Origin: a virus
Strand: one strand, 5' to 3'
DNA length: 64,000 nt
Virus record (IMG/VR): IMGVR_UViG_3300030382_001297
Coordinates: 1-64,000 of that record
Part shown: positions 18,626-52,558 of the stretch, in pieces
Numbering within the stretch: the stretch's first letter is position 1
How the letters are laid out: every line of letters begins with the position of its first letter
Notes under the pieces: model-generated
The model's input: the letters and a program-made list of their open reading frames with translations, nothing else
Told to the model about the DNA's origin: nothing
Databases searched by the model: none
Position numbers and translations under genes: made by a program

Positions 18626-20491
18626 TTAAATCTCACATTTGTCGCCCATACAAGCATACTCAGCTTTTCCTTGAGTATTGTCATTCATTTCGTATTTCGA
18701 CAACTGTCTATAATCTATTCGGGGTAGCTTCTTTATAAGCCTTTCGTAGGTTCTATGGTCGATTTCCTCATAAGGGGCCAATTTATAATGTCCTCCATCG
18801 TAAGGTAGGAAGGAAACTCCGTTAATGATATCCCAGTTTTGATATACCCAATTACCTACTTCAAACCATTCATCATCTCTGACGTATACAGTCATACTAG
18901 CATTATGTTCACACCAGTTATGTTGTAAGTTTTTATAATGTTTTAATTGGTCTAACGCAGTTACATCCTTTCGAGTTATACAATTTTCAGGAGATTTAAC
19001 AGGAAATTCTAATACCCAAGTAGAAACATTCCTTTTAGTCTGTCCATTTTCAGGATTACATTTTATCCCTGAGTCCTTCATTAATTTAAATAAGGGGTCT
19101 CTGTCTGCAATTCTATAGCGTCGGATGTAGTAATCTGACCAACGTGGATGTACTCCACTAGAAGAATCTACTAATTGTGAAACTGTGCCTGAAGGCTTGA
19201 CACAAGTAGTGGCAGATGGCATCTTTGTACCGAGGATACTCGAAGCTTTGCGAGAAATGCGTAAAACGCGGCTTTTAAGGGCCTTTAAAGCCTCCGAAGT
19301 CATCAAGGTGGGGTTATCCATCTGTCCGGTCAAACTAACGCCTAGAAGCGCTTCTATGTCACAATTCTTTTTCCAGCCTTCTCTAAGGTATGGAAAGTAG
19401 GTAAATGAGCTCTGTATAACACCGAGCCATGTAGCAGTCTCTACCTTATCTAAAAGGGTATCTAAATTATCCTCTGCTCTAACAACCACTTCGCTTAGGT
19501 TACAGAACTCCATATCTCTAAGCATTATCTCACCACAAGGGTTAGTACCCTGTATTAATGGAGCATATCTGCGTGATGGAGCTTTGCTCTGTGCAGCTTG
19601 GAGATTAAATATACCTCTCTCTCCTGTGCCTGATAGAGCTAATTCTGCCCATTCTTTTAGAAATTGTCCTGCTGAGGGCTTTTCTCTATATATAGCGCTA
19701 TTGTTTGCCATAGCACGTTTAATAGGGAAAGGCCACTCTTTTGCATGACGCATGTCTTCATCATCAAGGCCACTCAAAGAGATTTGTGAGCTGCGTCTAA
19801 CTCCACCCACTACCACGATTTCAGCAATTTGATTACAAATATCATGAGCTTCCAACGTTGTGAGCTTTCGACCTTGGGCATTATGCATGGTTTCACGAAT
19901 GAAATCATGTAACTTAATAAGAGGAGCTGGACCTGAGGCACGACCTCCCATAGTGCGTAAGCGAGCTCCCTCTGGTCTAATTTGAGAATAATCAAAATGT
20001 ATGTTTTGACCATCATATAAATTTTGCATGAGCATCTTCACAGAGTCTGACCATCCAGCTTTGGAATCAAAGATAGGGATTTTGTCTAACGCTCTCCCCG
20101 ATTTAATTTCCGGAATATCCGGAAGTTTATCCACTTCTTCCTTCTCTACTGAAAAACCAAAGCCAGTCCCACACATTAGGATGTAAAGACACTCGGCAAA
20201 AGCTTCAACACAATTTATTTTAGTAAAGGAGCAGTTATAAATGCATGTGTTATCAAACTTAGCAGCTGGTCCTGCTGCCCATAAAAATCTCATTGACGGC
20301 ATTACGCCGAATTCTTTCATGTACTTTCTAATTTTATTAACCGTTTTCTCAGGTATCTCTGGCCTCTCTGAATAGATGAAATCTAAAAATCTCTCTATGG
20401 TTTCGGGCCACTCTTCTCTTCTTTTATCCTCATCAATCCAACGAGAATATGTTCTCTTATATATAAATTCTGCTACTTCGTTTTTAAACAT
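18626..20491 (-). CDS. nrdJ: Class II (adenosylcobalamin-dependent) ribonucleotide reductase
   Basis: RTYSR, PSMRFLW, TNPCGEI, FCNLSEV, TTCVKPSGTVSQL and a C-terminal CxxxxC pair; no beta subunit present. Confidence 0.92.
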   Translation of the reverse strand: MFKNEVAEFIYKRTYSRWIDEDKRREEWPETIERFLDFIYSERPEIPEKTVNKIRKYMKEFGVMPSMRFLWAAGPAAKFDNTCIYNCSFTKINCVEAFAECLYILMCGTGFGFSVEKEEVDKLPDIPEIKSGRALDKIPIFDSKAGWSDSVKMLMQNLYDGQNIHFDYSQIRPEGARLRTMGGRASGPAPLIKLHDFIRETMHNAQGRKLTTLEAHDICNQIAEIVVVGGVRRSSQISLSGLDDEDMRHAKEWPFPIKRAMANNSAIYREKPSAGQFLKEWAELALSGTGERGIFNLQAAQSKAPSRRYAPLIQGTNPCGEIMLRDMEFCNLSEVVVRAEDNLDTLLDKVETATWLGVIQSSFTYFPYLREGWKKNCDIEALLGVSLTGQMDNPTLMTSEALKALKSRVLRISRKASSILGTKMPSATTCVKPSGTVSQLVDSSSGVHPRWSDYYIRRYRIADRDPLFKLMKDSGIKCNPENGQTKRNVSTWVLEFPVKSPENCITRKDVTALDQLKHYKNLQHNWCEHNASMTVYVRDDEWFEVGNWVYQNWDIINGVSFLPYDGGHYKLAPYEEIDHRTYERLIKKLPRIDYRQLSKYEMNDNTQGKAEYACMGDKCEI

Positions 20492-27170: not shown

Positions 27171-27421
27171 GACGCAGGTAACTCCTTAATATCATCATCT
27201 TCAGTTACTTCCCACATCTGTATCAAACCAATGGCATCACGCACAGCGTTAGCCATAGAGGAATGATACATAAACATTGCTTTACTTTCTTCATCTCCTA
27301 GTATATCTGATTTAACTTCTTCAGCTATCGACTCATGGAAGTTAACGCAGTGGTATAAAAGGTCTATCCATTGTTCACGTTCTTTATCGGTATTAACTTT
27401 TAATGTTTTTATCTCACTCAT
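27167..27421 (-). CDS. Hypothetical protein
   Basis: 84-aa ORF coupled to both neighbours. Confidence 0.55.
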   Translation of the reverse strand: MSEIKTLKVNTDKEREQWIDLLYHCVNFHESIAEEVKSDILGDEESKAMFMYHSSMANAVRDAIGLIQMWEVTEDDDIKELPAS

Positions 27422-27792
27422 CTATCGTCGCCATCACCCTTTATGGTGTCTTTCACCATGCGTTGATTGAGTTTGTCTATATTGTTTATCATAACGTCAT
27501 AGAAAGTTATTCCTAGTACGTCTAATATGCGTGTGTAGTACCATAAAACATCTCCTAACTCAGACTCCATCGCCTTATTAAAATCTTGTACTACCATCAT
27601 ATCTCCTCTAAGATGTTTCTTAAATTTTCCTAGTACTTCACCCACTTCATTTGCTAGCCCTATCATTAGGTATTCCATTTCTACTTCTTTAGGATACTGG
27701 GCTGTAGTTCTTGTGAACTCTTTATATGTTTCTTCCCATCCTAGATTGATAGTCATGCCCTGTGGCTCTTTCTTCTTTTCTTCTTTCACCAT
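27418..27792 (-). CDS. MazG-like NTP pyrophosphohydrolase
   Basis: GLANEVGEVLGKFKKHLR, ELGDVLWY, NIDKLNQR...IKGDGDDR. Confidence 0.88.
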   Translation of the reverse strand: MVKEEKKKEPQGMTINLGWEETYKEFTRTTAQYPKEVEMEYLMIGLANEVGEVLGKFKKHLRGDMMVVQDFNKAMESELGDVLWYYTRILDVLGITFYDVMINNIDKLNQRMVKDTIKGDGDDR

Positions 27793-29943: not shown

Positions 29944-30636
29944 TTATATCCATTTTTTCCTCGCTTTTCTTAAATTTAGAACATTGTTCTCACATAGCCT
30001 AATGGCATATGTTTTCAGTTCTTTCTCTTTCATACCACCAAAATTATCTTTCAATAGTAGGAATAAATCAATTAGAGACATAGGGTCTCCATCTTTATCT
30101 TCTAAAAACTTAACTATCTCTTCAGGAACAATCCAATGATATTCCTGTTCTTCAGAATTAAATAAGGAGGGCCGGAACTTCTCTTTAACAAAAGGTTCCA
30201 TATCACTTGAGCTTAAGGCATAGCCGTTAACTGTCCTACCATGTGCTGTAGTAATTTTAGTTCGTTTAAAACCGAACACCACATCAGTGGGGTTAACGTT
30301 TTCATCTATTAGCTTAGTGAAAGTCTTTTGAAAGTGAGTATGCGTAGCTAACGTAGCAGAGAGATAAGATATATTATGCTTACCTCCTCCTACATATTCT
30401 GTTTCATTATGGTATAGACCATATGTAAATTCATTTATACGAGGTATATCTTGTTTACAGAAAACACATTCTCCATCCTCAGCCCAACATTTAACTCTAC
30501 GTCTAGTTGATTGATTCCAATGTTTAACTCTGTGTATTGGTGATATAAATGCAAATTGACCCAACGCACTCATAGAGTCCTCTAACCAAACTCTTTGACT
30601 TTTGGGTGACTGAATCCAATCTGAGTAAACACTCAT
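29944..30636 (-). CDS. Putative Zn-binding ssDNA-binding protein
   Basis: HW...RVKC...ECVFC motif and OB-like FKRTK...GYAL; next to the helicase. Confidence 0.45.
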   Translation of the reverse strand: MSVYSDWIQSPKSQRVWLEDSMSALGQFAFISPIHRVKHWNQSTRRRVKCWAEDGECVFCKQDIPRINEFTYGLYHNETEYVGGGKHNISYLSATLATHTHFQKTFTKLIDENVNPTDVVFGFKRTKITTAHGRTVNGYALSSSDMEPFVKEKFRPSLFNSEEQEYHWIVPEEIVKFLEDKDGDPMSLIDLFLLLKDNFGGMKEKELKTYAIRLCENNVLNLRKARKKWI

Positions 30637-31007
30637 TTAATGGTTATCTTTTTTCCTTTACTTTCTTCTTGTTTTTGGATTTTAATATCTAATACACCGT
30701 TGTTGAACTTAGCTTCGACCTTATCAGGGTTTAGCTCAGGAGTGAAACGTTTTCCAAAACTATAATCTCTCTCCTCTGTGGTAGCTTTTACTTCTACCAT
30801 ATGGTTGTCAACATGCATCTCTATATCCTTCTTAGCTACTCCGGGCATATCAACGGTGATAGTTATCTCACCGTTCTTATCTTCCCAGTCTCCTATGTCA
30901 CTTTCTTTATTCCATGTTGGAAACTGTGTAGCTCTGAAGCGAGGGGGTCTACTAGTTATCATATCCATCCAAGCGTCCATAAGGTCGTCCAATGGGTTAC
31001 TTCTCAT
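30633..31007 (-). CDS. Small heat-shock protein (Hsp20)
   Basis: ITVDMPGVAKKDIEM, AKFNNGVLDIKIQK, C-terminal ITI motif. Confidence 0.9.
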   Translation of the reverse strand: MRSNPLDDLMDAWMDMITSRPPRFRATQFPTWNKESDIGDWEDKNGEITITVDMPGVAKKDIEMHVDNHMVEVKATTEERDYSFGKRFTPELNPDKVEAKFNNGVLDIKIQKQEESKGKKITIK

Positions 31008-35206: not shown

Positions 35207-36103
35207 TCACTGTATTGCACGTTCCCTCACACTCTTAGGTATTTGGTCATATGTGCAATCTTCTACGTCCTTATCGTCTCTCCAATGTAAAAACTTAGGG
35301 TGTCTTATACTCCCTGATGGATACCATGTATTACCTTTAGCCTTAAAGACCTGACCAATATAAACTTCTGGGTTCTTAGTAAAATCCTGTCGCATGGCCT
35401 CAGTGAGACCCCCACAGGTGACATATACTTCTTTATCATAAAATGTTCCAATTACTCCCCCTACTTGTCCCTCATACTTTGTTCCTTCGTCTGCCATCCT
35501 AAAGGAATGACATACATATTCTACTTCAACTACTGCTTTCATTCTCGCCCATGCGTTTCGGTGTTGATACTCACTCGTGCTATCTTTAAACACAAGCCCT
35601 TCATATGCTTCACCTATAACATAGTGGTCCCATAACTCAGGCCACTGATAAGTCTCATATGTCTCTAAAATGTCGAGCCATTCTAATTCTTGTTTACATT
35701 GTTCCCAAGCCCATTCCGAACATAAAGTTCTTTCAGCTAACTCTTTTGATTCAATGTTTTTACCTTCAAATCTCAAGCAATCGAATATATAAAACTCACC
35801 ATCTATATCTCTTGTGTGCGCCCAATGGGAACCATACATATATTCTCCCAACAGAACAGAGTCTATTGTTGAATCTGATATAACTCCCTCACTCTTTTTC
35901 TTACCTGTTCTTGAGTATATAGCCCACTGTCCATTATTTATTATAAGACAACCCCAGATACCATCCATCTTCATTTGAACCATATCGTATTGTATTGGAA
36001 TCTCCCTATCCTTACGATAGATTAACTCTCTAAACTTCGGTCTATCTACTCTTGCTGAATCTATAAACTTCTCATGTGCGGGAAACCCTGTTATATCTTT
36101 CAT
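35207..36103 (-). CDS. lig: ATP-dependent DNA ligase (minimal)
   Basis: KMDGIW, LLGE, IFDCL, YEGLVFKD, WARMK, OB domain GSIRHPKFLHWRDDK. Confidence 0.88.
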   Translation of the reverse strand: MKDITGFPAHEKFIDSARVDRPKFRELIYRKDREIPIQYDMVQMKMDGIWGCLIINNGQWAIYSRTGKKKSEGVISDSTIDSVLLGEYMYGSHWAHTRDIDGEFYIFDCLRFEGKNIESKELAERTLCSEWAWEQCKQELEWLDILETYETYQWPELWDHYVIGEAYEGLVFKDSTSEYQHRNAWARMKAVVEVEYVCHSFRMADEGTKYEGQVGGVIGTFYDKEVYVTCGGLTEAMRQDFTKNPEVYIGQVFKAKGNTWYPSGSIRHPKFLHWRDDKDVEDCTYDQIPKSVRERAIQ

Positions 36104-36262
36104 TATTCCTCTAAATATCTTCTTACCATTTTTATGCTATCTTTAAGGGATTCATTTTCTGTTGTCTCAGCTACTTCAAAATCCATATCACATAACATAT
36201 GTAATGCCTTCTTCCTATCCATGTATCGAAGAACTACTCCCACTAAATGTAGGGCTTCTCCT

Positions 36263-36490
36263 CTATTGGTGACCATTCGTTTCTCCTATGTCTAATTTCT
36301 CTCCGTAAGGTCTCCACTCACTATCAGTCTGTTCGTGTCCTTCTATCTGACATTCTGGACAGTAGTGTTCAATATACCTACTATCATATCCATGTCTCCT
36401 TTGGGAAGTCATAAGCGTATTGCATGGTCTCTCATCGAGTGTCTTTCTTTGACATCTCTTATAGTATAGAGGACTTCTCATTGTTCGCAC
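36263..36490 (-). CDS. Zn-binding hypothetical protein
   Basis: Several Cys residues including CPEC. Confidence 0.45.
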   Translation of the reverse strand: MRTMRSPLYYKRCQRKTLDERPCNTLMTSQRRHGYDSRYIEHYCPECQIEGHEQTDSEWRPYGEKLDIGETNGHQ

Positions 36491-36774
36491 CTCTCACATC
36501 CGTTCCGGCAACATTCTTTACTCATGCCTTCTTCTATCTCTGGGTCAGGTTTCCAAATACCTTTAGCCATTATATCTTTCAGCCATTCATCTTGATACCT
36601 TAGTGGCATCTCCATATATATAATCTCAGCTATAGTGCTGATACATTCCTCATATTCTTTATATGTTTTGACTAAGCGTGTCTCTTCATTCTCACCACTA
36701 CCTTCTGCGATAGGGGTAACCATCTGGTTTTTCTCATACGTTCTACCGTCAGTGTATTCTGTTTTATATGTCAT
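36478..36774 (-). CDS. Hypothetical protein
   Basis: AGGAG RBS; C-terminal CCRNGCERC. Confidence 0.55.
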   Translation of the reverse strand: MTYKTEYTDGRTYEKNQMVTPIAEGSGENEETRLVKTYKEYEECISTIAEIIYMEMPLRYQDEWLKDIMAKGIWKPDPEIEEGMSKECCRNGCERCEQ

Positions 36775-36923
36775 TATTACTCCTGTTTATATTTTCTTGG
36801 TCTTAATGTTAATTTCTTTTTACTAAATCCAAATTTAGTGTCTATCCATACTACTATTTCTCTTATCATTTTTCATTTCTCCATAATGATATTTCAATAT
36901 ATATCAAATATCTATTTAAAGGT

Positions 36924-37527
36924 TGTGGTAGAGAGAGATATGAACCCAAAACAAAACTGAAAGATATAAAACCGTCATCCTTGTTTATCACTCGCAATGA
37001 GCTTACTCCTTGTGTAGTTATATATCACACTATACTTATCTTAACTACCGCATCGGCTGTTGTGCAGAGGTATAATGTTCTCAGTATATAGTTCAACAGT
37101 GACATATGCTTCTCACGAACTAAAATCGGTCTATGTCTTTCATCCTTATATACCTGCGTTCACAGTTGGTAAGCATATATGTTCATGCTCATTATGTCCT
37201 TCTAACGGACAGTGAACTACCACATGACTCAGTGACTCTACTTCTTCTGTCGTGAACGCTTTGATAGGTCTCGCTTGACGTATAGGCATGCCATCTCTCA
37301 AGATGGACGCACTCCTATACTTGGTTCTCTTATGTGTAGCACCATAACTGCTACCACACCTATCTCATAGTGTTTCTGTCCTAACTCCCCGCTTAGGGTA
37401 ATGACGCTATTATGATTAAGCGTATGGGCTTTGTTATCACTATGTATCTCATAGAGCTTGCTTGATTAGCTCAATCACTCTATGTTTCTCAGCGACTTTT
37501 GGGCGTATGATTCAGGTCTCTACCACA
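36924..37527 (-). ncRNA. Candidate ~600-nt large structured non-coding RNA
   Basis: No ORF of 60 aa or more. Ends form a perfect 11-bp stem extended by CCCAAAA/TTTTGGG, enclosing at least six nested helices. Strand inferred from flanking genes and purine richness. Confidence 0.7.
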
Positions 37528-37531
37528 TTTA

Positions 37532-37608
37532 GTGGGATAGGAGCTTCGAGAGGTAAAATGAGCCAAACAACTGTTAAGAAATAAGGTTTGAAACTCCTAT
37601 CCTATCAC
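37532..37608 (-). ncRNA. Candidate antisense hairpin sRNA
   Basis: Stem GGATAGGAG (37535-43) / CTCCTATCC (37594-602); loop complementary to RBS plus start codon sequences. Confidence 0.5.
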
Positions 37609-37716
37609 CTTAGGTTTAAAACTTTAGGAACATCCACATCCATATCATAGTAAAGAATGCTATAAGTATATACCATTCAGCTTCTTGTATGTCTCGTGGA
37701 TTACTCCATAATTCTT

Positions 37717-38244
37717 TTAGTCTTTTATATATTCTCCTGTATGTATCTTTATGCATTGTTGCTTTCCTCTATCATATGCTTCGAGATGTCCTCTGTAAAA
37801 ATCCCATGCATCTCTATTAGCATATAATTTCTTCTTATCATAAGTAGTGGCATAGTAACTCTTTGACTTACTTGCCTCCCAATCATCTTTCTTTAGGTTT
37901 TTCCCAGCGATAAAAAACTCAGGAGTATTATCAGTTCTCAGTATCCAATGGAGGAATATAAAATATCCTTCCCTCTTACTGTAAGTTCCACTGAACCACG
38001 TTTCTCCTGATGTTGTCTTTATCTCTACTGGATGACCACCCAAACGTATGTCTGGTTCAGCATCTATCTTTGGTGCTACGGCATCCTCTATCAATTCAGC
38101 CATAGCATTTTCAAGTAGTCCACTTATATCTTCTGACTTTTGTTTCTTAGTTTTAAAGAGACTCTTCTTATCATAGAAGTCAAACAACTCTTTAGTATCG
38201 CTTGTCAATCTCTCTATCACTGCTTTGTTTATGATTTCCTTCAT
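37717..38244 (-). CDS. Restriction endonuclease-like PD-(D/E)XK protein
   Basis: SGLLE...EPDIRLGGHPVEIKTT; no DNA methyltransferase recognised in the window. Confidence 0.6.
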   Translation of the reverse strand: MKEIINKAVIERLTSDTKELFDFYDKKSLFKTKKQKSEDISGLLENAMAELIEDAVAPKIDAEPDIRLGGHPVEIKTTSGETWFSGTYSKREGYFIFLHWILRTDNTPEFFIAGKNLKKDDWEASKSKSYYATTYDKKKLYANRDAWDFYRGHLEAYDRGKQQCIKIHTGEYIKD

Positions 38245-38508
38245 CTATACTGTGCCTCCTATTCTCACGTAGCAAATCTGACAATAGGGGTTTCCGCTTG
38301 TATCTCTATACCTGATATACTCTAATGCTAATCTACATTTACACGTATTACAATTACTCATCCGTCATCTCCATCTCTTCGCATTCCCAGTCATATATTG
38401 CTTGGTCTATCTCACTCCAAACTTCTTTAGGCATAGGGACATCAACTTCATTATCATCTTCATCATAGAAGACTATCTTATAAGATATAATCTTTTGCTT
38501 ATAATCCT

Positions 38509-40653
38509 TCATACTTTTATAACCCTCCTGATTATCTTTGATACTGCTGGCGCAAGGTTATCTATATTACTAACCATTATATGGTTGTTAAACATCTTTT
38601 GTTGTGCATACTTATCTGCTCCGCTTATTCCTACTTGAATAATTGACCATCCTTTACCTTCTAAATGATTTACTACCTTTCGCACGTGACTCATACCATC
38701 ATAACCACCATATCCAGACGCAGCCGGCTGACCGTCGGAGTATATAATCATAAGCTTGTTAGACATAGGCTGTGAAGATTCTTTACTAACTCTTTCAGCC
38801 GCCGCCCATATAGCCATACCATCTCTATTTTCATATCGAGCTATCATAGCTCCCATAGCCATAGGTCTATCTTTCATATTCGGCCCCCAATATTCAGTCA
38901 TATTGGTCGAACCACAATCTGTATGCCATCCAGCTTCACCATCAGCAGTATGACCAAATACCCATAAGTCTAATTTGGGATTATCCTGTAAAGCTTCTTT
39001 CGTAGCGATAGCTGACTGTCGAGCCATCTCCATCTTCCACGAACCCATACTACCTGATTCATCTACCAATATACAAATGTCTAATGGTTTATCATCTTCA
39101 ATTATATCATTCTTAAACAAATCCTTACGACCTAATGGTATTCTGTGAAGCATACGCTTATCTATCTTACCACGCTTCTGATTACGGATAGTATGTTTTT
39201 GTGTATTACCATATAAATCTATCTTACGCTTGAGTGAATTACTTATCTTCTTCATATTTTTAGATTCTGCCTTATATTTAACTCTTTGACCTTCAGTAGG
39301 TCGAGCTTTACGCCAAGTGATTTTCTTTTGGTTCTTGTATATAAGACCAACCTCAGTCATCTCAGTTTCCATATAGTCACTATCTTCAAGTTCTTCTATC
39401 TCTTTTGATATTTCATCGGCTAATGCACTACTCTTAGCATCTAACGTATAGTCTACTGCTTCTTCAAGTTCCCTCATCCCATCTGAGTCTTTCATTAGCT
39501 TACGAACATCAGACATACGACTTCTTTTACGTTCTATGTCTTTCTTAATTGAATCCTTTATGGATTCCCACTGTTCATCAGTTAATAAATCACCATCAGT
39601 CATAGACTTTTTGAGTTTGTCCATCTCTTTCTCGATATCTTTCTTCATATCCTCGCCGGAGCCTTTATCTTTAACCATCTTTTCGGCTACTGCTTTAAGA
39701 TAATGGAATAGTGCTTCTATACATTCAAAGGTATTTTCTCTACTATCCAATCCATTCTTTAACGCACGTGCAAAAAATCTTATATGCTTTCCGTGACGCT
39801 TTCTGCGAGTGTCGCCCATATGTTCCGGCCATCTAATGAAAGCTAATAGAGTATTCAGTATATCCATAAATGGATTATCTTCTATCATTTCTAATTTAGT
39901 TTCCATCTTCTCCTTGAAAAAGTGTTTCTTAACTTCAGAAATATATGTCACAAACCCAGCGTTATCTTTAGCTAACTGCTTTTCTATGTATTCATCTTCT
40001 ACTGAATTAGCGATAGTATGTAGTAATGTTCCTTCATATGTATCTTTTACTAATTCTGTTGCTTTCCTCTTTTCCCATCTATATAATGGTTTACTATGAA
40101 TGAGGTGTAACTTTTCGTGTATAGCTAATCCTGCTGTTATATCTAAATTGTCATCACTCTTCTTTAGTAGAGACCCATCTATGCGTATGAGTCCTCTTTC
40201 TAAATCAGAATAGTTCTGACCTTCATAATTGTAATCTAACTTATGCGATACTGTTGGGTCTACAACTTTACATAGAGAATCTAAATGTCTCTTATGTTTC
40301 AGTAATCTGGTCGCATCATCTTTATCAGCGTGGGAACTACCCCAACTACCCCACATACTTGACGTAGAGCCTGTGGATTGTCCTTGCCACCAGCCACCAC
40401 CACCCCAAGTATAGGAACTACTACGGTTCCACATATCTCCGGTGGAAGATATAACGGGTGAATCTTTTATCGCAACTTTTGCTGTTGAAGCAGTAGTGAA
40501 TCTATCATCATAATCTAATGGAGTTTCACATATAGGACATTTATCCTCATGCGTAGCTTCTATCCATTTACTACAATCATAGCAGTAATCATCATCTGAT
40601 ACGCCTGTCCACTTATCTATATCGGTGTGGTGTGGTTCGTGTTTAATAACCAT
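38509..40653 (-). CDS. VWA-domain protein (CobT/NorD-like) with HEXXH zincin-like region
   Basis: MIDAS ILVDESGSM, IYSDGQP, GKIDKRML; AIHEKLH...NSVEDEYIE; N-terminal Cys pairs. Confidence 0.82.
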   Translation of the reverse strand: MVIKHEPHHTDIDKWTGVSDDDYCYDCSKWIEATHEDKCPICETPLDYDDRFTTASTAKVAIKDSPVISSTGDMWNRSSSYTWGGGGWWQGQSTGSTSSMWGSWGSSHADKDDATRLLKHKRHLDSLCKVVDPTVSHKLDYNYEGQNYSDLERGLIRIDGSLLKKSDDNLDITAGLAIHEKLHLIHSKPLYRWEKRKATELVKDTYEGTLLHTIANSVEDEYIEKQLAKDNAGFVTYISEVKKHFFKEKMETKLEMIEDNPFMDILNTLLAFIRWPEHMGDTRRKRHGKHIRFFARALKNGLDSRENTFECIEALFHYLKAVAEKMVKDKGSGEDMKKDIEKEMDKLKKSMTDGDLLTDEQWESIKDSIKKDIERKRSRMSDVRKLMKDSDGMRELEEAVDYTLDAKSSALADEISKEIEELEDSDYMETEMTEVGLIYKNQKKITWRKARPTEGQRVKYKAESKNMKKISNSLKRKIDLYGNTQKHTIRNQKRGKIDKRMLHRIPLGRKDLFKNDIIEDDKPLDICILVDESGSMGSWKMEMARQSAIATKEALQDNPKLDLWVFGHTADGEAGWHTDCGSTNMTEYWGPNMKDRPMAMGAMIARYENRDGMAIWAAAERVSKESSQPMSNKLMIIYSDGQPAASGYGGYDGMSHVRKVVNHLEGKGWSIIQVGISGADKYAQQKMFNNHIMVSNIDNLAPAVSKIIRRVIKV

Positions 40654-44500: not shown

Positions 44501-44536
44501 TCAAACCATCTGTATTATAGAGAAAAAGGAGGAAAA

Positions 44537-44893
44537 ATGCCTAAAACAACTGAAACGCAAAAATCTACTGCAATGGATTATTTGGCGGCCCCACGTGGTG
44601 AAGGAATTGTAAAGAACCTAATGGCTCTTTTAGGATTCCAAGCCCCAAAGGGTGGTCGATTGCCTGTTGGAGTAAAATACGATACACTTGTAGCAATGAA
44701 CGACGTATTAAGCGCTGAAATAAGTGCTGAAACGACTTCGATGATTACAAGTAGGATTGTTGAGCTACAAGCGTCACGACGTTTAAGCACTGGAAAAGTT
44801 TCCGCAACACCGGAAAGTATAATCAGTGCAATTAAGTCGGGTCGTATTTCATTGACCGAACTTCAAGCGAAGCTCGAAGCAATGGAGTCTTAA
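44537..44893 (+). CDS. Hypothetical protein (118 aa), the only credible + strand gene in the control region
   Basis: GGAGG RBS, dedicated promoter, downstream G7/C7 hairpin. Confidence 0.7.
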   Translation: MPKTTETQKSTAMDYLAAPRGEGIVKNLMALLGFQAPKGGRLPVGVKYDTLVAMNDVLSAEISAETTSMITSRIVELQASRRLSTGKVSATPESIISAIKSGRISLTELQAKLEAMES

Positions 44894-44922
44894 ATAAAAT
44901 ATCTCACCTGAGATAAAACGTA

Positions 44923-44941
44923 GGGGGGGCGATTCCCCCCC
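44923..44941 (+). terminator. G7/C7 hairpin
   Basis: GGGGGGG-CGATT-CCCCCCC about 30 nt after the stop. Confidence 0.45.
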
Positions 44942-44980
44942 AAACCATTCGCACTTATATTTATCTGACGTCGATAATAA

Positions 44981-45247
44981 GGACGGGAGCATTTAAGACG
45001 CTTCTCGACTTTTAGCAGATTGAAGCCAATTTAAATTGTAGACAAATCACTCCGGAAAATATACCTATCACTTGTTTAAGTTACTTATTAAAGCAGACTT
45101 GCGCTTACTCTCAAATAGATTAATAACGAGAAATTCTTTATCACATTCCCTAATACCGAGCACAACTTCTAAAACTGAATTGTCAAGCTTTTCTCACTTG
45201 CGCAGAAACTCACCTGACGGGTTAACCGTTTGTAGTTTCTCCCGTCC
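44981..45247. ncRNA. Candidate ~270-nt structured RNA
   Basis: Closing stem GGACGGGAG/CTCCCGTCC; internal AGAAACT/AGTTTCT and ACGG/CCGT hairpin; followed by ACCTTATA. Confidence 0.4.
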
Positions 45248-45403
45248 AACCTTATAATGACACCTGTTCTAAACAGGGAGGGCTTAAAAGCGGGACGCCC
45301 AAAACTATAACCTTATATAGTGCCCTCCCGAAATGAACAATTTGCGCATGTCCGAATGGGGACCCCCAGAAACTTGTAGGGGGTCCTTTCGAGGTTGACT
45401 TCT

Positions 45404-45643
45404 TTATAATACTCTGTGAGCGTTTTCTTTAATCTCAGATACGTAAACGTCTCCGAGCTCGAATTCTCCGTAAGTCATCGGTGATTTCACACCACAAAAC
45501 CATCTGGCGTATTTGTTCTTAGCTTCCAGTTCTGGCTTTTGGTATTTCTTCAGGACTCGCCATTCAAATCCTGCACCGTGTTTATCCACCCAAATTTCGT
45601 AGGGCTTCGCTATTTCTCTTGTCTTCTTTTGTGATTCTGTCAT
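45404..45643 (-). CDS. Hypothetical protein
   Basis: AGAGGT RBS, own TATA; WFCGVKSP..GEFELGDVYVSEI. Confidence 0.65.
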   Translation of the reverse strand: MTESQKKTREIAKPYEIWVDKHGAGFEWRVLKKYQKPELEAKNKYARWFCGVKSPMTYGEFELGDVYVSEIKENAHRVL

Positions 45644-46189
45644 TGTTTGACCTCTAATATACCAAGGGTTAGGTCCTATTTAAGCTTTTGCACATGTCTA
45701 AAATTAGGGAGCCCTAAACTGTAAGGCTCCACATTAAAATTAAGAAGCTCCCAAACTTTTCAAATGGGAAACAAGAGGGATTTAACATTCCCCTGTTTCC
45801 TCATCGAAGACACCACAACAAAGGCAAGTGTATTTATCTCCACTACATTTAAGATTGTGGTCTTCTATCTTTTTGCGTTCTATCTCAAACTCTACGTTTT
45901 CGTCGTATAGGTCGTCTACATTAGGCATTGTTCACTCTCCAATATAAATTGTTGTGCGTTGTCTATCACTGAATGATATTCTGAAAGGTTTTCATCTCCA
46001 ACCTCTACCAATACCTGACGGATAGAGTCAAGACCGTAAATGATTTCGTCCTGTCTCATTTTGATTCACCTAATATCTGTTCTACTATATCGTGCCACAA
46101 GTCAAGCATTTGGTCTGTGGTAAACGGCTTATCATTATAATAATGATTTTTTAAAACTTTCATTTCGTCTGCTGTTAATATTATTTCAC

Positions 46190-46441
46190 TCATTCTAAAC
46201 CTCTTATTTGTTCGTCTTCTTTAAAGATTGCGTCTAATTCCTGAATCCTTGCGTAGACTTCTTTTTTCCATCTTACTAAATCCTGACCTTTTAGCTTGTC
46301 ACCTCTTAAGGTGTATTCGTCAGCCCAAAAGCTAACCATTCCTCTTACAGTTCCAAGAATCCAAGATTCAATAGAATATTGTTCTTTGCTTAAAGCGTCG
46401 GCTTCCCTTGCTCTTTTTAAATTTCTTCTTATCGTTTCCAT
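46190..46441 (-). CDS. Hypothetical protein
   Basis: GGAG RBS; 83 aa. Confidence 0.55.
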   Translation of the reverse strand: METIRRNLKRAREADALSKEQYSIESWILGTVRGMVSFWADEYTLRGDKLKGQDLVRWKKEVYARIQELDAIFKEDEQIRGLE

Positions 46442-46443
46442 TT

Positions 46444-46626
46444 TTAGTATTCTCCATTATCTTCCCAATCGTAATTTAACTCGAATTTTTCATTCTGTCC
46501 ACAGGTGCAATTATCGTAAATCCAATCGCAACCGTCTGCGTGTTGGTTTTCTTCGTGCGTTGCTCCGCTGTTTTCGTATTGAAAGGCCATTTCATCTGTT
46601 AGATTTTGTAATAAGGTTTTTCTCAT
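46444..46626 (-). CDS. Acidic Cys/His microprotein
   Basis: AGAGGT RBS; HADGCDWIYDNCTC. Confidence 0.55.
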   Translation of the reverse strand: MRKTLLQNLTDEMAFQYENSGATHEENQHADGCDWIYDNCTCGQNEKFELNYDWEDNGEY

Positions 46627-46794
46627 TTTGCGACCTCTTTATCAAGTCCCAACTTTTGGGCCTCTATTGCCTCGTAAATTTCGAGGGTGTGACTCATCGG
46701 TAATTTAAACCGACGGCTGGCTTTCCTGAAACGGAATTCGTTTCTTAAAATGTTTTCTTTGAAGCTCATTTTTTCTCTCTAATTCTACTCTAAC

Positions 46795-46880
46795 GAGAGA
46801 GTATTTAAGGGTTTGGGTCATTTTAGTATATAAGTATCGAGGGGGTATATATAGTCCGTTTTAGGTTCCGCTCGCACTTT
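46795..46880 (-). promoter_or_regulatory. Triple-TATA promoter cassette, copy A
   Basis: On +: GTATTTAA 46801, GTATATAA 46826, TATATAGT 46848, CCGCT 46868. Confidence 0.72.
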
Positions 46881-47149
46881 TTCGCGCATGTCCTTAAAAG
46901 GAATATACAATCTCACAGTCAAAACAAAACTGTGCGTCTGGTAGTTTTGTAAATGGGTTATCCTTTTGGTAACCGTCTACTAATTCTCTTTTACATTCTT
47001 GGCAATTCTTATATCGTCCGTGTTTCATATTTTACCTTATATTACCTATAACGAGGGAGGTTATAAAGGTTTGCACATGTCCAAAGTTTTTAATACCGCT
47101 GGCCTAAGAGCGCCACATTAATGACTGAGCTTAGGCCTTGAGTATAAGG

Positions 47150-47225
47150 TTTAGGGGTGTAGGTCGTGAGAACCCACTCGCACTAACCACGGGATTACAA
47201 CCGCGTGCCTCCGGAAGGCCTATAA
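47150..47225 (-). ncRNA. Degenerate tRNA-like element
   Basis: Anticodon-like hairpin CACG(C)GG-TTGTAAT-CCCGTG and T-arm-like GTGGG-TTCTCACGA-CCTAC; no canonical D-arm. Confidence 0.3.
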
Positions 47226-47365
47226 ATTTTGTGCTTCGCCATTCTTGTCAAGCGCCCCTATTTTTATACTGGGGTATTAATCCAGTCTTAAAACAAATAT
47301 CAGAACGACAACGCTAAAGTATACGTCTTAGCGTCTGTGAACTTCCTACTCATTAATAAGTATAA

Positions 47366-47525
47366 GGTGTGAGGGAGGATTCAAGGTTAACCTCCAAAGA
47401 CTACCGGCCCAAATACCTAAGTATTGTCCGCACTTACCACTCACCACCCTCTCACGCATTTGCGCATTGAGGCAGGTTTGTGTGCCTTACCCCCTTTGGG
47501 AAGGGGTTATTCAGCCACTCACGAT
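47366..47525 (-). ncRNA. manA-motif-like structured RNA with a tRNA-like 3' end
   Basis: 5' UGGCUGAAUAACCCCUUCCCAAAGGGGGUAAGGCACAC resembles, from memory, the manA RNA motif of marine phages; 3' GGAGG-UU...GAAU-CCUCC-CUCACACC. Confidence 0.5.
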
Positions 47526-47626
47526 AACGGGATATCTCCCATTAATATAAGGTGTTGGGTCGGGATTCGGCCCCTGAAACCCAACACGGGATATTGTATT
47601 TTTAATTACAGTTTAATTCTGTTTGC

Positions 47627-47710
47627 TTACTTTGACCATCGGCTTGACTTTGTCGAAGTTGGAATACGTCCAATCTTAAGCCAAAGCTTCTGAATTCGTG
47701 TTAGTTTCAT
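47627..47710 (-). CDS. 27-aa basic peptide heading the ncRNA transcription unit
   Basis: AGAGGTAAA RBS downstream of promoter B; MKLTRIQKLWLKIGRIPTSTKSSRWSK. Confidence 0.45.
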   Translation of the reverse strand: MKLTRIQKLWLKIGRIPTSTKSSRWSK

Positions 47711-47739
47711 TGTTCTTTTACCTCTAACTTACTTGTAGC

Positions 47740-47825
47740 GAGAGAGTATTTAAAGCTTTGCCTCAAAATAGTATATAAGACACGAGGAGACTTATATAGT
47801 GCGTTTTGGGTTCCGCTCACTGTTT
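47740..47825 (-). promoter_or_regulatory. Triple-TATA promoter cassette, copy B
   Basis: Elements at 47746, 47771, 47793 and 47813. Confidence 0.72.
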
Positions 47826-48173
47826 TTGAAAAAATTTGGACATGTCGATTTTAAAAATTAAATATAAAATCTTTGGCGTCCCAGCTTTCTGGTGCCTCTT
47901 GGTCTGATAGACCAATGGCATCCGCTACCTGTTGCTCTCTAATTGGACAGTTACCAAAATAAACCTCCATCGCTAAGGATAGGATGAAATCAGTCCAATT
48001 TAAATTATTGTGGTTGCTCATTCTTTACCTCGTATTATACTAAACAGTTCTGCTAATACGTCGTCGTAATATTCCACATCGTTAGGACTGCGGACGTTCC
48101 ACGTATTAAGTTTACTAATATCGTATCTTAAGGAGTCTATCGCTACCAATAGCTCTGTTGTAGTGAAAGCCAT

Positions 48174-48446
48174 TTAAGCACCTCTCTTATAAATTTCTTT
48201 GTTAGGATAGGCCACGAATCTGGCCCCTACGCTATTAATAACGTCCCAAACTTCAGCGTCGTTAAGACTACCGTGTTTAGTTCCAAAAGAGTGGAGATTA
48301 ACCCAGCCTATTGTGTGGCAATAGGTAGAGTTTGGCCCCTCCATTCGGGAACCCATTAGTTCCACCCAAAAATTGTGGATACTCATCAATCGACCATCCC
48401 AGTCGACGAAGCCAGTTTTATTTGTTGTATAAGTTGTTTTATTCAT
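48174..48446 (-). CDS. Hypothetical protein
   Basis: AGAGGTAAAA RBS downstream of promoter C. Confidence 0.65.
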   Translation of the reverse strand: MNKTTYTTNKTGFVDWDGRLMSIHNFWVELMGSRMEGPNSTYCHTIGWVNLHSFGTKHGSLNDAEVWDVINSVGARFVAYPNKEIYKRGA

Positions 48447-48472
48447 TCTTTTACCTCTATTATTACTGTAGC

Positions 48473-48558
48473 GAGAGAGTATTTAAGGGTTTGGGTCATT
48501 TTAGTATATAAGGCACGAGGGAGTATATATAGTGCGATATACGTCCCGCTAACGTTTT
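48473..48558 (-). promoter_or_regulatory. Triple-TATA promoter cassette, copy C
   Basis: Elements at 48479, 48504, 48526 and 48546. Confidence 0.72.
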
Positions 48559-48577
48559 TTTAAAAATTTGCATGTCT

Positions 48578-48948
48578 GGGTATACCCCCCCTACCCCATG
48601 GGGGTATCTCTTCTAGAGAGGATAGCTATATATAGTGGGTATATAAGGGTGGGGGGTCATTTATATATAGGGGGTATATAAGACAAGTGCCACCCCCCCA
48701 TGCATGTGTTGACATGTACATGATTAGACATGTCCCGGTTTTGGGATTGGCTGATGATTAACATTATAATATTAAATAGAAAGTCTACTTAGTATTACCA
48801 TTACTTCTGTTAAATATTTTTGGTATTCGTCCATTACTTAGTGTCACCCCTTAGTTGTTTTTTTGATTTTTTTATTTGTTTATCGAGCATCTTTTCCAAT
48901 TTTTCTAAAATTTCCATTGGGTCTGCGGTGGGGTATACCCCCCCTACC
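48578..48948. repeat. 18-bp direct repeat GGGTATACCCCCCCTACC flanking G/C tracts and a CATG cluster
   Basis: Identical copies at 48578-48595 and 48931-48948; five CATG within 48699-48732. Confidence 0.7.
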
Positions 48949-48965
48949 TCTATTAAACGCATTGA

Positions 48966-49103
48966 TTACCTCTTATTCCAAGTGGAGTATCGGGTAGGTG
49001 TGTCCCTACGGCTGGTCTGCTTCCAGATTTGGGTTGCCACGATGCGAGCTATAAGGGCCCTGTTGTGGTTATCTACTTGCTGTTGTGTTGGTGTAGTTGT
49101 CAT
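48966..49103 (-). CDS. 45-aa microprotein (true start inside track ORF 48966..49307)
   Basis: AGAGGTAAAA RBS before MTTTPTQQQ; promoter D upstream. Confidence 0.55.
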   Translation of the reverse strand: MTTTPTQQQVDNHNRALIARIVATQIWKQTSRRDTPTRYSTWNKR

Positions 49104-49919: not shown

Positions 49920-50984
49920 ATGATAGAGATGAAAGACCTAATGGAGACTTCTCTGGTAGCACAGTTACTAGAGAAGGGAGGCAGAATTGAGCCTCTTATA
50001 GTAGAGAACAGTAAGTCAGATGGGTTGGGATTATGCAACCCGTCAATTTGGCATAAAGAAGGTACAACCAAGTACTTAGTTAATGTAAGGAAAGTTTCTT
50101 ATTACTTACACCACTGTGAAGGAGAACAGAAGTATCAGACCCCTTGGGGCCCCCTGAATTATGTTCGCCCCGACGATGACCCTTATTTAAGAACAGATAA
50201 TTTTATCTGTGACTTTAATTTAAGGAATATGAAATTAACTAACCCCCGAAAGATAAACACTAACAAGTTTACCAAAGAACCTGAATGGGACTTTGTGGGA
50301 CTAGAGGACGCTAGGATTGTCGAGTGGGAAGGAAAGATGTACGTAACTGGCGTTCGGCGCTACGCGCCGGATGGAAAGGGAAGGATGGTATTGTCCGAAA
50401 TTGATATTACACCAAAAGGTGTGAAGGAGATAGGACGTTATGTCATGTTACCCCCAGAAGGTGAAGAGAATTACTGTGAGAAGAATTGGATGCCTATATT
50501 AGATAAGCCGTTTCACTTCGTGAAATGGTCTAATCCTATAGAGGTTATTAAAGTGGATATAAATAAAAAGTGGAAGAACAACCCTAAGAAATATCGATGT
50601 CCAAGTAGTTACGTATTCAAAGGAGACCCTAAGAAGAAACTACCCTTCCAGTTAGACCCACGTGGTAGCTCTCAGGTAATACCTTATCATGGTTATTACA
50701 TGGCTATCGTACACGAGTGTGATTACTGGCACAATGATAAGAACGATAGAGATTCACATTATTACCATAGATTTATGGTATGGGATAAAAAGTGGAACGT
50801 AGTGACTTATTCAGACCCATTCAAGTTTATGGATGGACGTATAGAGTTCTGTTGTGGAATGGCTGTGCACCCAGATGGAAATGACGTTTACGTTACCTTT
50901 GGGTTCCAAGATAATTCTGCATACAAACTACATATACCTGCTGAACACTTAAACACTATGTTGGAGTTCCCTAAGAAAGAATGA
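49920..50984 (+). CDS. Five-bladed beta-propeller glycosidase/phosphorylase-like protein (GH130-like)
   Basis: CNPSI, GLEDARIV, CEKNWMP, RGSSQ, YYHRF, IEFCCGM, VTFGFQDN. Confidence 0.75.
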   Translation: MIEMKDLMETSLVAQLLEKGGRIEPLIVENSKSDGLGLCNPSIWHKEGTTKYLVNVRKVSYYLHHCEGEQKYQTPWGPLNYVRPDDDPYLRTDNFICDFNLRNMKLTNPRKINTNKFTKEPEWDFVGLEDARIVEWEGKMYVTGVRRYAPDGKGRMVLSEIDITPKGVKEIGRYVMLPPEGEENYCEKNWMPILDKPFHFVKWSNPIEVIKVDINKKWKNNPKKYRCPSSYVFKGDPKKKLPFQLDPRGSSQVIPYHGYYMAIVHECDYWHNDKNDRDSHYYHRFMVWDKKWNVVTYSDPFKFMDGRIEFCCGMAVHPDGNDVYVTFGFQDNSAYKLHIPAEHLNTMLEFPKKE

Positions 50985-52558
50985 AGAACGACTATTGGAG
51001 AACCACAGACTGGCCTACGCTAGAAATAACAACATCTATACCTAAAGCAGGGTGTGTAGTTGATTGTGTCTTTTGCCCACAACGAGTTTTACAAAAGGTG
51101 TGGGATAGCGAACACTTCACTACAGAAAAAGCTAGAATCATGAGGTTAGAAGACTTCAAGATGGTAGTTGATAAATTACCTAAAGAAGTTAGAATAACCT
51201 TCTCTGGTTTTACTGAACCTTGGTTAAACAAAGATTGTTCAACGATGGTGCAATATGCACATCTCAAGGGACACCCTGTATCTGTATTCACTACAGCCGT
51301 AGGTATGAGTCTTAAAGATGTTAAAATGATTTCGCATATACCTTTCTGTGGAGGACCCAATGGTGGATTTACATTACATCTACCTGATAAAGAAAGACTG
51401 GCTAAACACCCAGTAACTAAAACATATATTAAAGTAGTACAAGCGTTAAAGGACGCTGACATTACAAACTTCCAAACCATGTCAATGGGGGAAGTCCACG
51501 AAGAAGTGGAACATATATATCCCGATAAGACAGTTAATAAATATGAAATGTGGCATCGAGCAGGTAACCTATTAGGTGAAGCTCAACTGAAGCCAGAAGT
51601 AAAAGAAGTATGGGATAGATTCAAATCTGTTTACCATGAAGGAGATAAAACATGTGGTTGTATAGAAGGTTTATATCATAACATACTATTACCTAATGGT
51701 GAAGTATCGCTATGTTGTATGGATTATAACCTAGAAGAAATAATAGGTAATTTGTATACACAAGAATATGATGATATAATGCCTAAACCACAAACATGCT
51801 ATGACATGTGTAAAAGATGTGAGAATGGAGTAGACCCCATAACTAGCAATTCTAGTATGGTTAAAGAGTATGGTGTCGCAGACGCATTGTCTTGCGACCA
51901 CTTTATAGCACCTGATGAGATGGTACAGTATTTAGGCTTCGATATGAACCCTGATAAACGTGTACCTGAAGCAGACATCATACAAAGCATGAGGGAATAT
52001 ATAAACCCTAGTGGAACATTTGTAGATGTGGGTGCACATATAGGAACTTATACATGGTTATTAGGACCTTATGCTAAGGAGGTTTATGCCTTTGAGCCTA
52101 CTCGTAGAATTTATAATCATCTATGCGCTAATGTTTTATTAAAGAACCTTTCTGACAAAGTAGAAACTTATAATATAGGATTATCTGATACTAATGGTAA
52201 ATTACCATTTTATGAGAGACAACCTGATGGAGGAACTAATGGTTTCACAGAAATTGGTTGGAAAGAAGATGATTCTTATATGCTGCCTGTTCTTAAAATG
52301 GATGAGTTTGATATAAAAGATATAAGTTTAATTAAGATAGATGTAGAGGGACACGAGCTTCAAGTTATCAAAGGAGCTTCTGAAACCCTTAAGAATAATA
52401 ATTACCCTCCTATTCTCTTTGAAAGTTGGGAACCTACGAGGTCCCAAAGAGCAGGAGAACTTAGAACGGAGCTGTTTAATTATTTATATGAAATAGGATA
52501 TACTGTCTGCCAGACAGAATCTCCTGAGATATTTTTAGCAAAGAAGGAAAAATTATGA
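50981..52558 (+). CDS. Radical SAM/SPASM domain fused to an FkbM-family methyltransferase
   Basis: CVVDCVFC, FSGFTEP, GEVSLCCMDY; then VDVGAHIG, AFEP, LIKIDVEGHELQVIKGA. Confidence 0.85.
   Translation: MKNDYWRTTDWPTLEITTSIPKAGCVVDCVFCPQRVLQKVWDSEHFTTEKARIMRLEDFKMVVDKLPKEVRITFSGFTEPWLNKDCSTMVQYAHLKGHPVSVFTTAVGMSLKDVKMISHIPFCGGPNGGFTLHLPDKERLAKHPVTKTYIKVVQALKDADITNFQTMSMGEVHEEVEHIYPDKTVNKYEMWHRAGNLLGEAQLKPEVKEVWDRFKSVYHEGDKTCGCIEGLYHNILLPNGEVSLCCMDYNLEEIIGNLYTQEYDDIMPKPQTCYDMCKRCENGVDPITSNSSMVKEYGVADALSCDHFIAPDEMVQYLGFDMNPDKRVPEADIIQSMREYINPSGTFVDVGAHIGTYTWLLGPYAKEVYAFEPTRRIYNHLCANVLLKNLSDKVETYNIGLSDTNGKLPFYERQPDGGTNGFTEIGWKEDDSYMLPVLKMDEFDIKDISLIKIDVEGHELQVIKGASETLKNNNYPPILFESWEPTRSQRAGELRTELFNYLYEIGYTVCQTESPEIFLAKKEKL

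Follow-up and report, generated by a model that had tools for sequence, protein, structure and literature searches.

A conserved hairpin with an anti-start loop beside a large RNA in an uncultured marine virus

RNAIII of Staphylococcus aureus and similar molecules are multi-hairpin RNAs with C/U-rich loops that bind ribosome-binding sites (RBS). The c4 RNA of phages P1 and P7, the sar RNA of phage P22 and the antisense RNA of halovirus phiH are phage antisense repressors of translation. To our knowledge, regulatory RNAs of archaeal viruses are almost unknown. Loop 2 of the Methanosarcina mazei sRNA154 carries an anti-RBS sequence that masks the RBS of glnA2, and sRNA41 masks RBS within polycistronic mRNAs, in the account given in PMC5867862. 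Tan1 is an abundant structured non-coding RNA (ncRNA) of 229 nucleotides (nt), reported on metagenome contigs of ‘Candidatus Thalassoarchaea’ (marine group II) (Hou et al. 2016, PMC5069720). The present work concerns a hairpin of the IMG/VR virus record IMGVR_UViG_3300030382_001297, of which positions 1 to 64,000 were analysed (64,000 nt, called the window below). The hairpin lies at 37531-37609 and displays in its loop the complement of an RBS and of a start codon. A first-pass annotation had placed it at 37532-37608 and had proposed a trans-acting antisense RNA, co-transcribed with a large RNA, that shuts off the translation of presumed early genes or of host genes.

The anti-RBS hairpin loop in a large structured RNA is a likeness to RNAIII, which has several such loops, whereas here the motif is present in one hairpin only; the organism and the sequence also differ. 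Like the c4, sar and phiH RNAs, the hairpin belongs to a virus-encoded RNA, and a pairing with viral mRNA start regions that would time expression is proposed for it. Those RNAs have extended complementarity to one known target, in contrast to the two short boxes, with no co-varying target, observed here. The archaeal anti-RBS loops provide a precedent for the proposed reading. As in sRNA154 and sRNA41, a hairpin loop is complementary to an RBS, and masking of initiation sites is proposed. These two, as PMC5867862 describes them, are cellular RNAs, independently transcribed and with experimentally supported targets, whereas the present hairpin is viral and is located between an open reading frame (ORF) and a large RNA. 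Also unlike them, the viral loop would in principle pair with both the RBS and the AUG, and no target emerged for it; there is no sequence or Rfam relationship to either. Compared by description only, Tan1 and the large RNA share the nature of an abundant structured ncRNA and the same ecological setting, and the large RNA beside the hairpin may be Tan1; the description in PMC5069720 mentions no hairpin with an anti-start loop.

Structure, strand and conservation of the hairpin

On the plus strand, the sequence GGATAGGAG at 37535-37543 is complementary to CTCCTATCC at 37594-37602, and AGAGGTAAAATGAGCCAAACAACTG is enclosed in the loop at 37549-37573. The sequence thus reads as first annotated. 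The stem of at least 9 base pairs (bp) described there is present, and the whole element is larger than was described. On the minus-strand RNA it is composed of a 4-bp basal helix, a 3-nt bulge, a 13-bp helix and a 42-nt loop. The basal helix is formed by GGUG (37606-37609) and CACU (37531-37534). The bulge, AUA (37603-37605) or AAA in some relatives, was present in 30/30 homologues. In the 13-bp helix, the segment 37590-37602 pairs with 37535-37547 and comprises a 9-bp core, one U.G pair and three covarying pairs; the 3' strands of both helices were placed by homologue alignment and covariation. The loop, delimited by the fold and the homologues, covers 37548-37589; its 5' part is variable and rich in pyrimidines, whereas its 3' part is conserved. 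The latter contains, in minus-strand order, a CUCAU box (37558-37562), antisense of AUGAG, the start codon plus two nucleotides, and an ACCUC box (37550-37554), antisense of a GAGGU RBS.

Either strand folded alone yields the hairpin. The reality of the structure is not settled by the lone sequence, because neither fold stands out from shuffled sequences (z-scores of -1.9 and -2.2 for the minus and plus strands, respectively, with 6/200 shuffles as good on each strand). The hairpin is more than a chance fold because it is conserved across homologues. The neighbouring VWA protein was used to retrieve ten viral loci, and the hairpin was found by pattern downstream of the VWA gene, in gene-sense orientation, in eight of them. 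The most divergent locus, L012, was recovered by a covariance model (29.5 bits, E-value 1.7e-4), and locus L003, which stops short of the region, was left out of the count. The hairpin is therefore present in 9/9 protein-retrieved loci that span the region. A search with a pattern in which the 9-bp core stem was fixed and the loop left free gave 7 viral and 55 metagenomic stretches, corresponding to 41 distinct cores. Characteristic flanks marked 28 of these cores as true homologues, the other 13 being unrelated. With the loci added via the protein, 30 distinct homologues were assembled, from viral and metagenomic contigs of many marine samples. According to the covariance model, six full virus records contain exactly one copy per genome.

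The hairpin matches no family of Rfam 15: a search of 36400-38000 on both strands, with E-values up to 10, returned four weak matches, none at the gathering score, and the best of them (U6, E-value 0.11, 18.7 bits against a gathering score of 44) was not on the hairpin. A scan of the GTDB genomes with the stem pattern gave five stretches and no homologue, and the region matched none of the GenBank phage records in a blastn search.

The consensus structure of the 30 homologues was computed with RNAalifold (17 pairs, 510 pair cells). Standard pairs occupied 99.6% of the cells, two-sided changes occurred at five pairs (22 cells), and 0/500 shuffles equalled the covariation score. In controls with slid partners, pairing fell to 36-54%. 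The core stem was set by the pattern for most sequences, so that its constancy proves little. The covarying positions are those that the pattern left free, namely the outermost base pair (G.U 18, C-G 9, G-C 2 and A-U 1) and four inner pairs. The inner extension of the helix reads, for example, UUUC/GAAG, UGAC/GUUG, UGUC/GAUG or UGGA/UCCG. One core position, at which the pattern allowed R and Y independently, also covaries (A-U 26, G-C 3, G.U 1). In L012, several main-stem pairs differ on both sides. The fold is kept in all 30 distinct homologues, and the lack of conservation that would have counted against the first-pass annotation was not observed. These results confirm that the hairpin is a real, conserved RNA structure. 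Two further structural elements were looked for by eye and rejected. A pseudoknot involving an AAAUG in the linker is not conserved, being absent from L005 and L009, and a kink-turn or C/D box does not agree with the structure because G.A pairs do not follow the bulge.

The distribution of G.U pairs indicates which strand is under selection. They fill 72 of the 510 stem cells and would be A.C mismatches on the plus strand. Two adjacent pair positions are U.G in 29/30 and G.U in 21/30 homologues, respectively. The selected structure consequently lies in the minus-strand, gene-sense RNA, which supports the minus strand as the functional one, as first proposed.

The motif CUCAU-N(2-8)-ACCUC was present in the loop of 30/30 variants. 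It was found in 28/28 homologues retrieved by pattern, although the loop had been left unconstrained, and in 0/13 unrelated matches. A purine directly precedes CUCAU in 30/30 variants. The spacer measures 2 nt in 13 variants, 3 nt in two, 4 nt in two, 5 nt in six, 6 nt in one, 7 nt in five and 8 nt in one. The distance from ACCUC to the core stem is 6 nt in 19/30 variants, and the motif is displaced from the stem by 51 nt in L008 and by 21 nt in L063. Elsewhere, the loop differs between variants in both sequence and length and contains indels. In L012, CGU replaces CAU and CCUCC replaces ACCUC; the loop of this locus (9254-9364) has 75 nt or more, and its CCUCC box is predicted to lie within a small internal hairpin and not to be free. 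In 24/24 full-length RNAs, the predicted mean unpaired probability was 0.87 for the motif, compared to 0.39 for the rest. The anti-RBS and anti-start loop of the first-pass annotation is therefore borne out, and by computation the hairpin has the single-stranded loop complementary to an RBS and a start codon that is expected of an anti-RBS riboregulator. The loop looks like a generic, compact anti-start-site module in which a U-rich spacer of variable length joins two invariant boxes. The motif alone is not diagnostic: the exact loop motif occurs in 44 stretches of viral contigs, with the hairpin on only two contigs, and the remaining 42 are reverse-strand readings of normal gene starts in unrelated phages. 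Intramolecular pairing of the loop with the large RNA was rejected, as no conserved partner was found among 24 RNAs, the sites obtained being weak and scattered (-8 to -17 kcal/mol).

Pairing with translation start sites

We propose that the hairpin is an RNA module that pairs with translation initiation regions, a tentative preference that falls short of even confidence. In this model, the module would sit on a minus-strand transcript between the stop codon of a small ORF and the closing helix of the large RNA. The long covarying stem would hold the loop open, and the 3' half of the loop would present ACCUC and CUCAU unpaired. The loop would then base-pair with mRNA initiation regions, the RBS and the AUG being covered together, and such pairing would keep the 30S subunit from binding, in the manner of the anti-RBS loops of known regulatory RNAs. 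The complement of an RBS plus an AUG would look like two invariant boxes and a 2-8-nt spacer, which argues for this reading. What we infer is the mRNA pairing itself, the choice of mRNAs (viral or host) and whether the hairpin acts as part of the large RNA or once processed from it; the ‘early’ status of the target genes is assumed. In a bolder version, which we consider doubtful, the hairpin would be a virus-encoded general start-site mask. The loop would copy the anti-RBS tail and the CAU anticodon of the initiating small subunit and would clamp the RBS-led starts of early viral or host mRNAs. The hairpin would be part of a very abundant large viral RNA, or be set free from it, and would in this way switch translation during infection.

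RBS of the GAGG/GGAG type preceded 36-51% of the crude viral gene starts and 18-22% of internal ATGs. The ungapped match of 19 out of 24 positions claimed for 44529-44552, at the start of gene 44537, is correct. It is the single best 24-mer match to the loop on both strands of the window, the next best being 16/24 at six sites. The described likeness to the starts at 48446, 48021, 49103 and 47710 could likewise be seen, and the best non-self duplex sites in the window include the gene starts 46193, 44537, 48021 and 48446. Over 116 crude starts, the mean duplex energy was -10.8 for the loop and -9.6 ± 0.6 for 100 shuffled probes. The region 44537-49103 contains several small genes with near-identical start regions of the type AGAGGTAAAAGA-ATG, for which no Pfam family was found. 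Conserved gene families of 48446, 48021, 49103, 46193, 46626 and 44537 are present in some related viruses.

A number of results weigh against this pairing, or at least against any particular target. The enrichment over shuffled probes at viral starts that the first-pass annotation had called for exists and is weak, since shuffles did as well as the loop in 1/100 cases on the mean, 5/100 on the top 10 sites and 10/100 on the number of sites at or below -18. In a scan of the whole window, the background tail attains the same duplex energies. When the loops and start regions of six genomes were compared in a matrix of own and other viruses, no advantage was seen on the diagonal, except for G003. 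Scored with the loop of its own virus, the 44537 family ranked 18/887, 3/849, 97/721, 10/998 and 8/563, never first; these ranks are suggestive, but strong, A-rich start sites such as these would be favoured by any anti-start probe. In G001, the closest full genome, whose loop is identical to that of the window, the ungapped 19/24 match is lost at the ortholog of 44537 because its spacing from RBS to start differs; the coding start of this ortholog is still complementary to the loop in another register. The start of the downstream gene showed no own-virus advantage (-14.9 vs -14.9). That of the upstream AAA gene singled out no target, with orthologs found only in G001 and L003. The ACCUCU or ACCUCC variant of the loop did not track the genome-wide use of AGAGG or GGAGG. 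Spacing is a further difficulty: 15/30 variants imply only 3-4 nt between GAGG and AUG, whereas viral genes mostly have 6-10 nt, and 3-4 nt in only 9 of the 105 GAGG-bearing starts. With so short a spacing, pairing with real start sites would need a bulge. Finally, the body of the large RNA shows no excess of anti-RBS motifs (12 found vs 9.3 expected).

In G003 (+21906), the record of locus L007, the loop has an unusual UUGUUGUU spacer and matches the start of a 1038-amino-acid (aa) gene with -32.2 kcal/mol, the second-best site being far behind at -24.3. This gene was rejected as a common target, as its ortholog in G004 ranks only fourth with the loop of G004 itself (-21.4). A pattern was also searched in 81 genomes of one order, that of a metagenome-assembled genome reached through a chance hit, and gave 51 matches vs 14 for the reversed control. 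Genes recurring among the 51 matches encode a protein of at least 503 aa and the alpha subunit of an electron-transfer flavoprotein, from which no conclusion is drawn.

Altogether, duplex scans, rankings and covariation tests established no specific target mRNA, viral or host. The co-variation of the loop with early-gene starts in related genomes, which the first-pass annotation had envisaged, did not appear: there was no own-virus advantage, and in the viral genomes no target had a start that co-varies with the loop, as a riboregulator would lead one to expect. From the claim of a trans-acting antisense RNA, the structure, strand, conservation and predicted accessibility were upheld, and the specific target was not.

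Other explanations of the invariant loop

The explanations were ranked with mRNA-start pairing first, then a protein-binding or processing element, transcription signals, a decoy and a plus-strand mini-ORF. The second of these is possible, if rather unlikely. The hairpin would be a protein-binding, processing or stability element at the boundary between the mRNA and the large RNA, for instance a hairpin that protects a 3' end, or a site of cleavage or assembly. The boxes would be read by an RNA-binding protein or a nuclease, either viral or of the host, and their likeness to an anti-start sequence would be incidental. The constant place of the hairpin is consistent with such a role: it begins 0-13 nt after the stop codon of the upstream ORF (30/33 distinct ORFs listed), and 4-8 nt separate its end from the helix that closes the large RNA. 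So are the conserved 3-nt bulge, the nearly fixed distance from ACCUC to the stem (6 nt in 19/30) and the failure of any consistent RNA target to emerge, which also tells against mRNA pairing. However, a spacer of 2-8 nt between invariant boxes would be unusual for a single protein site, the boxes exactly match the RBS type of the virus itself and the AUG, and the 51- and 21-nt displacements in L008 and L063 fit poorly. Nor is a candidate protein known, and the adjacent small ORFs have no Pfam family.

It is improbable that the loop acts at the DNA level as a set of transcription signals, its T-rich 5' half terminating the upstream operon or an internal promoter, in that half or in the region of the motif, driving the large RNA, or both. 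The longest T run in the 5' part of the loop reaches at least 5 nt in 18/30 variants, although the window itself has only TTT. By eye, this part resembles the flank of the TTTAAATA box found at the other end of the large RNA, and the T-rich stretch of the motif in the window lies about 22-27 nt upstream of the point at which the RNA-library contigs begin. Against this, the covariation with G.U pairs marks selection on an RNA holding both strands of the stem. The distance from CUCAU to the stem varies, with the 21-51-nt displacements in L063 and L008, and CUCAU and ACCUC are unlike the archaeal consensus of the B recognition element (BRE) and TATA box. The spacers contain G in 8/30 variants (UGUUGUU and similar), unlike a TATA box. 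An archaeal BRE/TATA promoter, which should show an A/T-only box at a fixed distance, was accordingly rejected.

The core of the 16S rRNA anti-RBS sequence is CCUCC, and the first five bases of the methionine-tRNA anticodon loop are CUCAU. The hairpin could be a decoy that mimics the 16S rRNA 3' tail and this anticodon loop and draws off a host factor or a ribonuclease, which we consider very unlikely. Neither CUCAU, with the two bases 5' of its CAU, nor ACCUC[C/U] varies, and both are predicted to be single-stranded. But the bases after CAU are not those of the anticodon loop in most variants, L012 carries CGU instead of CAU, the element has no linked nuclease or defence gene, and the resemblance is one to consensus sequences only.

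The least credible reading is that of a real plus-strand translation start, in which the hairpin loop would hold the RBS and AUG of a mini-ORF. The ATG at 37558 (plus strand) opens an 8-codon ORF in the window, MSQTTVKK, which the first-pass annotation had named as a possible objection. GAGGT and, after a spacer, ATGAG[C/T] are conserved. As CUCAU has a purine before it in 30/30 variants, the second codon is invariably a serine codon of the form AGY, and the plus-strand fold is similar in energy. Against this, neither frame nor length is conserved: the ORF ranges from 2 codons in L007 and L075 to 56 in G005, and a 1-nt indel shifts its frame between the window and L004. On the plus strand the G.U pairs would not pair, the neighbouring genes at 18336-43433 are all on the minus strand and the spacing from RBS to AUG is atypically short in half of the variants. 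A coding ORF was rejected.

Genomic setting and meaning for the virus

All ORFs of at least 90 aa tiling the region 18336-43433 are on the minus strand. Around the hairpin, about 850 nt are free of long ORFs; this gap is bordered on one side by a 175-aa gene (37717-38244) and on the other by the next minus-strand genes. A small upstream ORF of 46 aa, with a hydrophobic C-terminus and tandem stops (37616-37756, minus strand), ends just before the hairpin. The relatives possess either a conserved ORF of 38-46 aa or, in another clade, a different one of 72-90 aa. The 38-46-aa family shows the motif RLK.IWSNPRDI.EAEWYIL and a hydrophobic WMW tail. As had been claimed, the hairpin abuts a large RNA, noted as a large non-coding unit at 36914-37526 (minus strand). 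Its closing helix has 10 bp, GUGGUAGAGA (37526-37517) pairing with UCUCUACCAC (36934-36925), and is supported by the conserved end and by covariation (GU../..AC, UU../..AA, UC../..GA, and G-C to A-U). It is present in the minimum-energy fold of the 701-nt unit, the z-score of which is -3.3. The body of the RNA (36935-37516, minus strand) is mosaic and variable in length on comparison of relatives. The whole unit measures 288-704 nt in 24 relatives. Conservation is confined to its two ends (about 140 nt at the 5' end, about 50 nt at the 3' end), the inner modules being reshuffled in order. A promoter-like TTTAAATA box (36913-36920, minus strand), conserved with its flank in the 24 relatives, ends the unit. 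About 32 nt further on, a GGAG site is followed by a conserved basic ORF of 30 aa (MIREI...), the whole region covering 36777-36920 on the minus strand. The box looks like a strong promoter that would start the next gene cluster.

Contigs from four RNA libraries (three studies) matched 36979-37522; they give neither strand nor level. Within 35800-38800, the only other contig cover was that of X17 at 37929-38121. Such contigs cannot show absence, and nothing is drawn from the uncovered parts, which include the hairpin at 37535-37602. The RNA contig of one relative extends 101 nt past 37509 and may cover the hairpin of that relative. The geometry suggests that the hairpin is co-transcribed with the large RNA.

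The genome encodes a family-B polymerase, an ATP-dependent ligase, RecU, a class II ribonucleotide reductase, terminase and portal, as well as a CobT-type VWA protein with an AAA partner and a GT4 glycosyltransferase. Identity to GenBank phage records was at most 23% (tblastn of polymerase and terminase), and the protein-atlas assignment was ‘Viruses, Uroviricota’ only. The window also contains a MazG-like pyrophosphatase (27418-27792), an Hsp20-like protein (30633-31007), the class II ribonucleotide reductase (18626-20491) and a fusion of radical-SAM/SPASM and FkbM-methyltransferase (50981-52558), a set typical of marine phages. At the gathering score, the sole Rfam match in the whole window was a borderline manA RNA at 47364-47544 on the minus strand (55.4 vs 55.2 bits, E-value 2e-11), within the block of small genes at 44-49 kb. 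As described in PMC5434244, magrovirus genomes combine a head-tail structural module with an archaeal-type replisome (DNA polymerase, clamp, RFC, AEP, MCM), and PMC11706807 reports CobT-VWA and GT4 for group E magroviruses. The genes detected fit the magroviruses of these accounts, group E in particular. Pfam and PHROGs searches of the scanned ORFs revealed no MCM, AEP primase, RFC or clamp. A host among the Poseidoniales is plausible; the reading of the hairpin is independent of the host domain.

Text searches of PMC5434244 and PMC11706807 returned no mention of ncRNA, intergenic regions or promoters, nor any regulatory RNA of magrovirus-like viruses. Covariation supports the present hairpin as an RNA element, which occurs in a family of tailed viruses of the sea that are uncultured. 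It anchors one end of a large mosaic RNA seen in metatranscriptome contigs, and the content of its loop predicts a direct masking of translation start sites. If the mechanism fails, the invariant two-box loop still requires a binding partner. If it is true, the element would offer a handle on how uncultured viruses time or hijack translation, and a compact natural anti-start-site module. It would then be the first riboregulator described in viruses of the abundant planktonic marine archaea, and it might give a function to part of an abundant, Tan1-like marine ncRNA.

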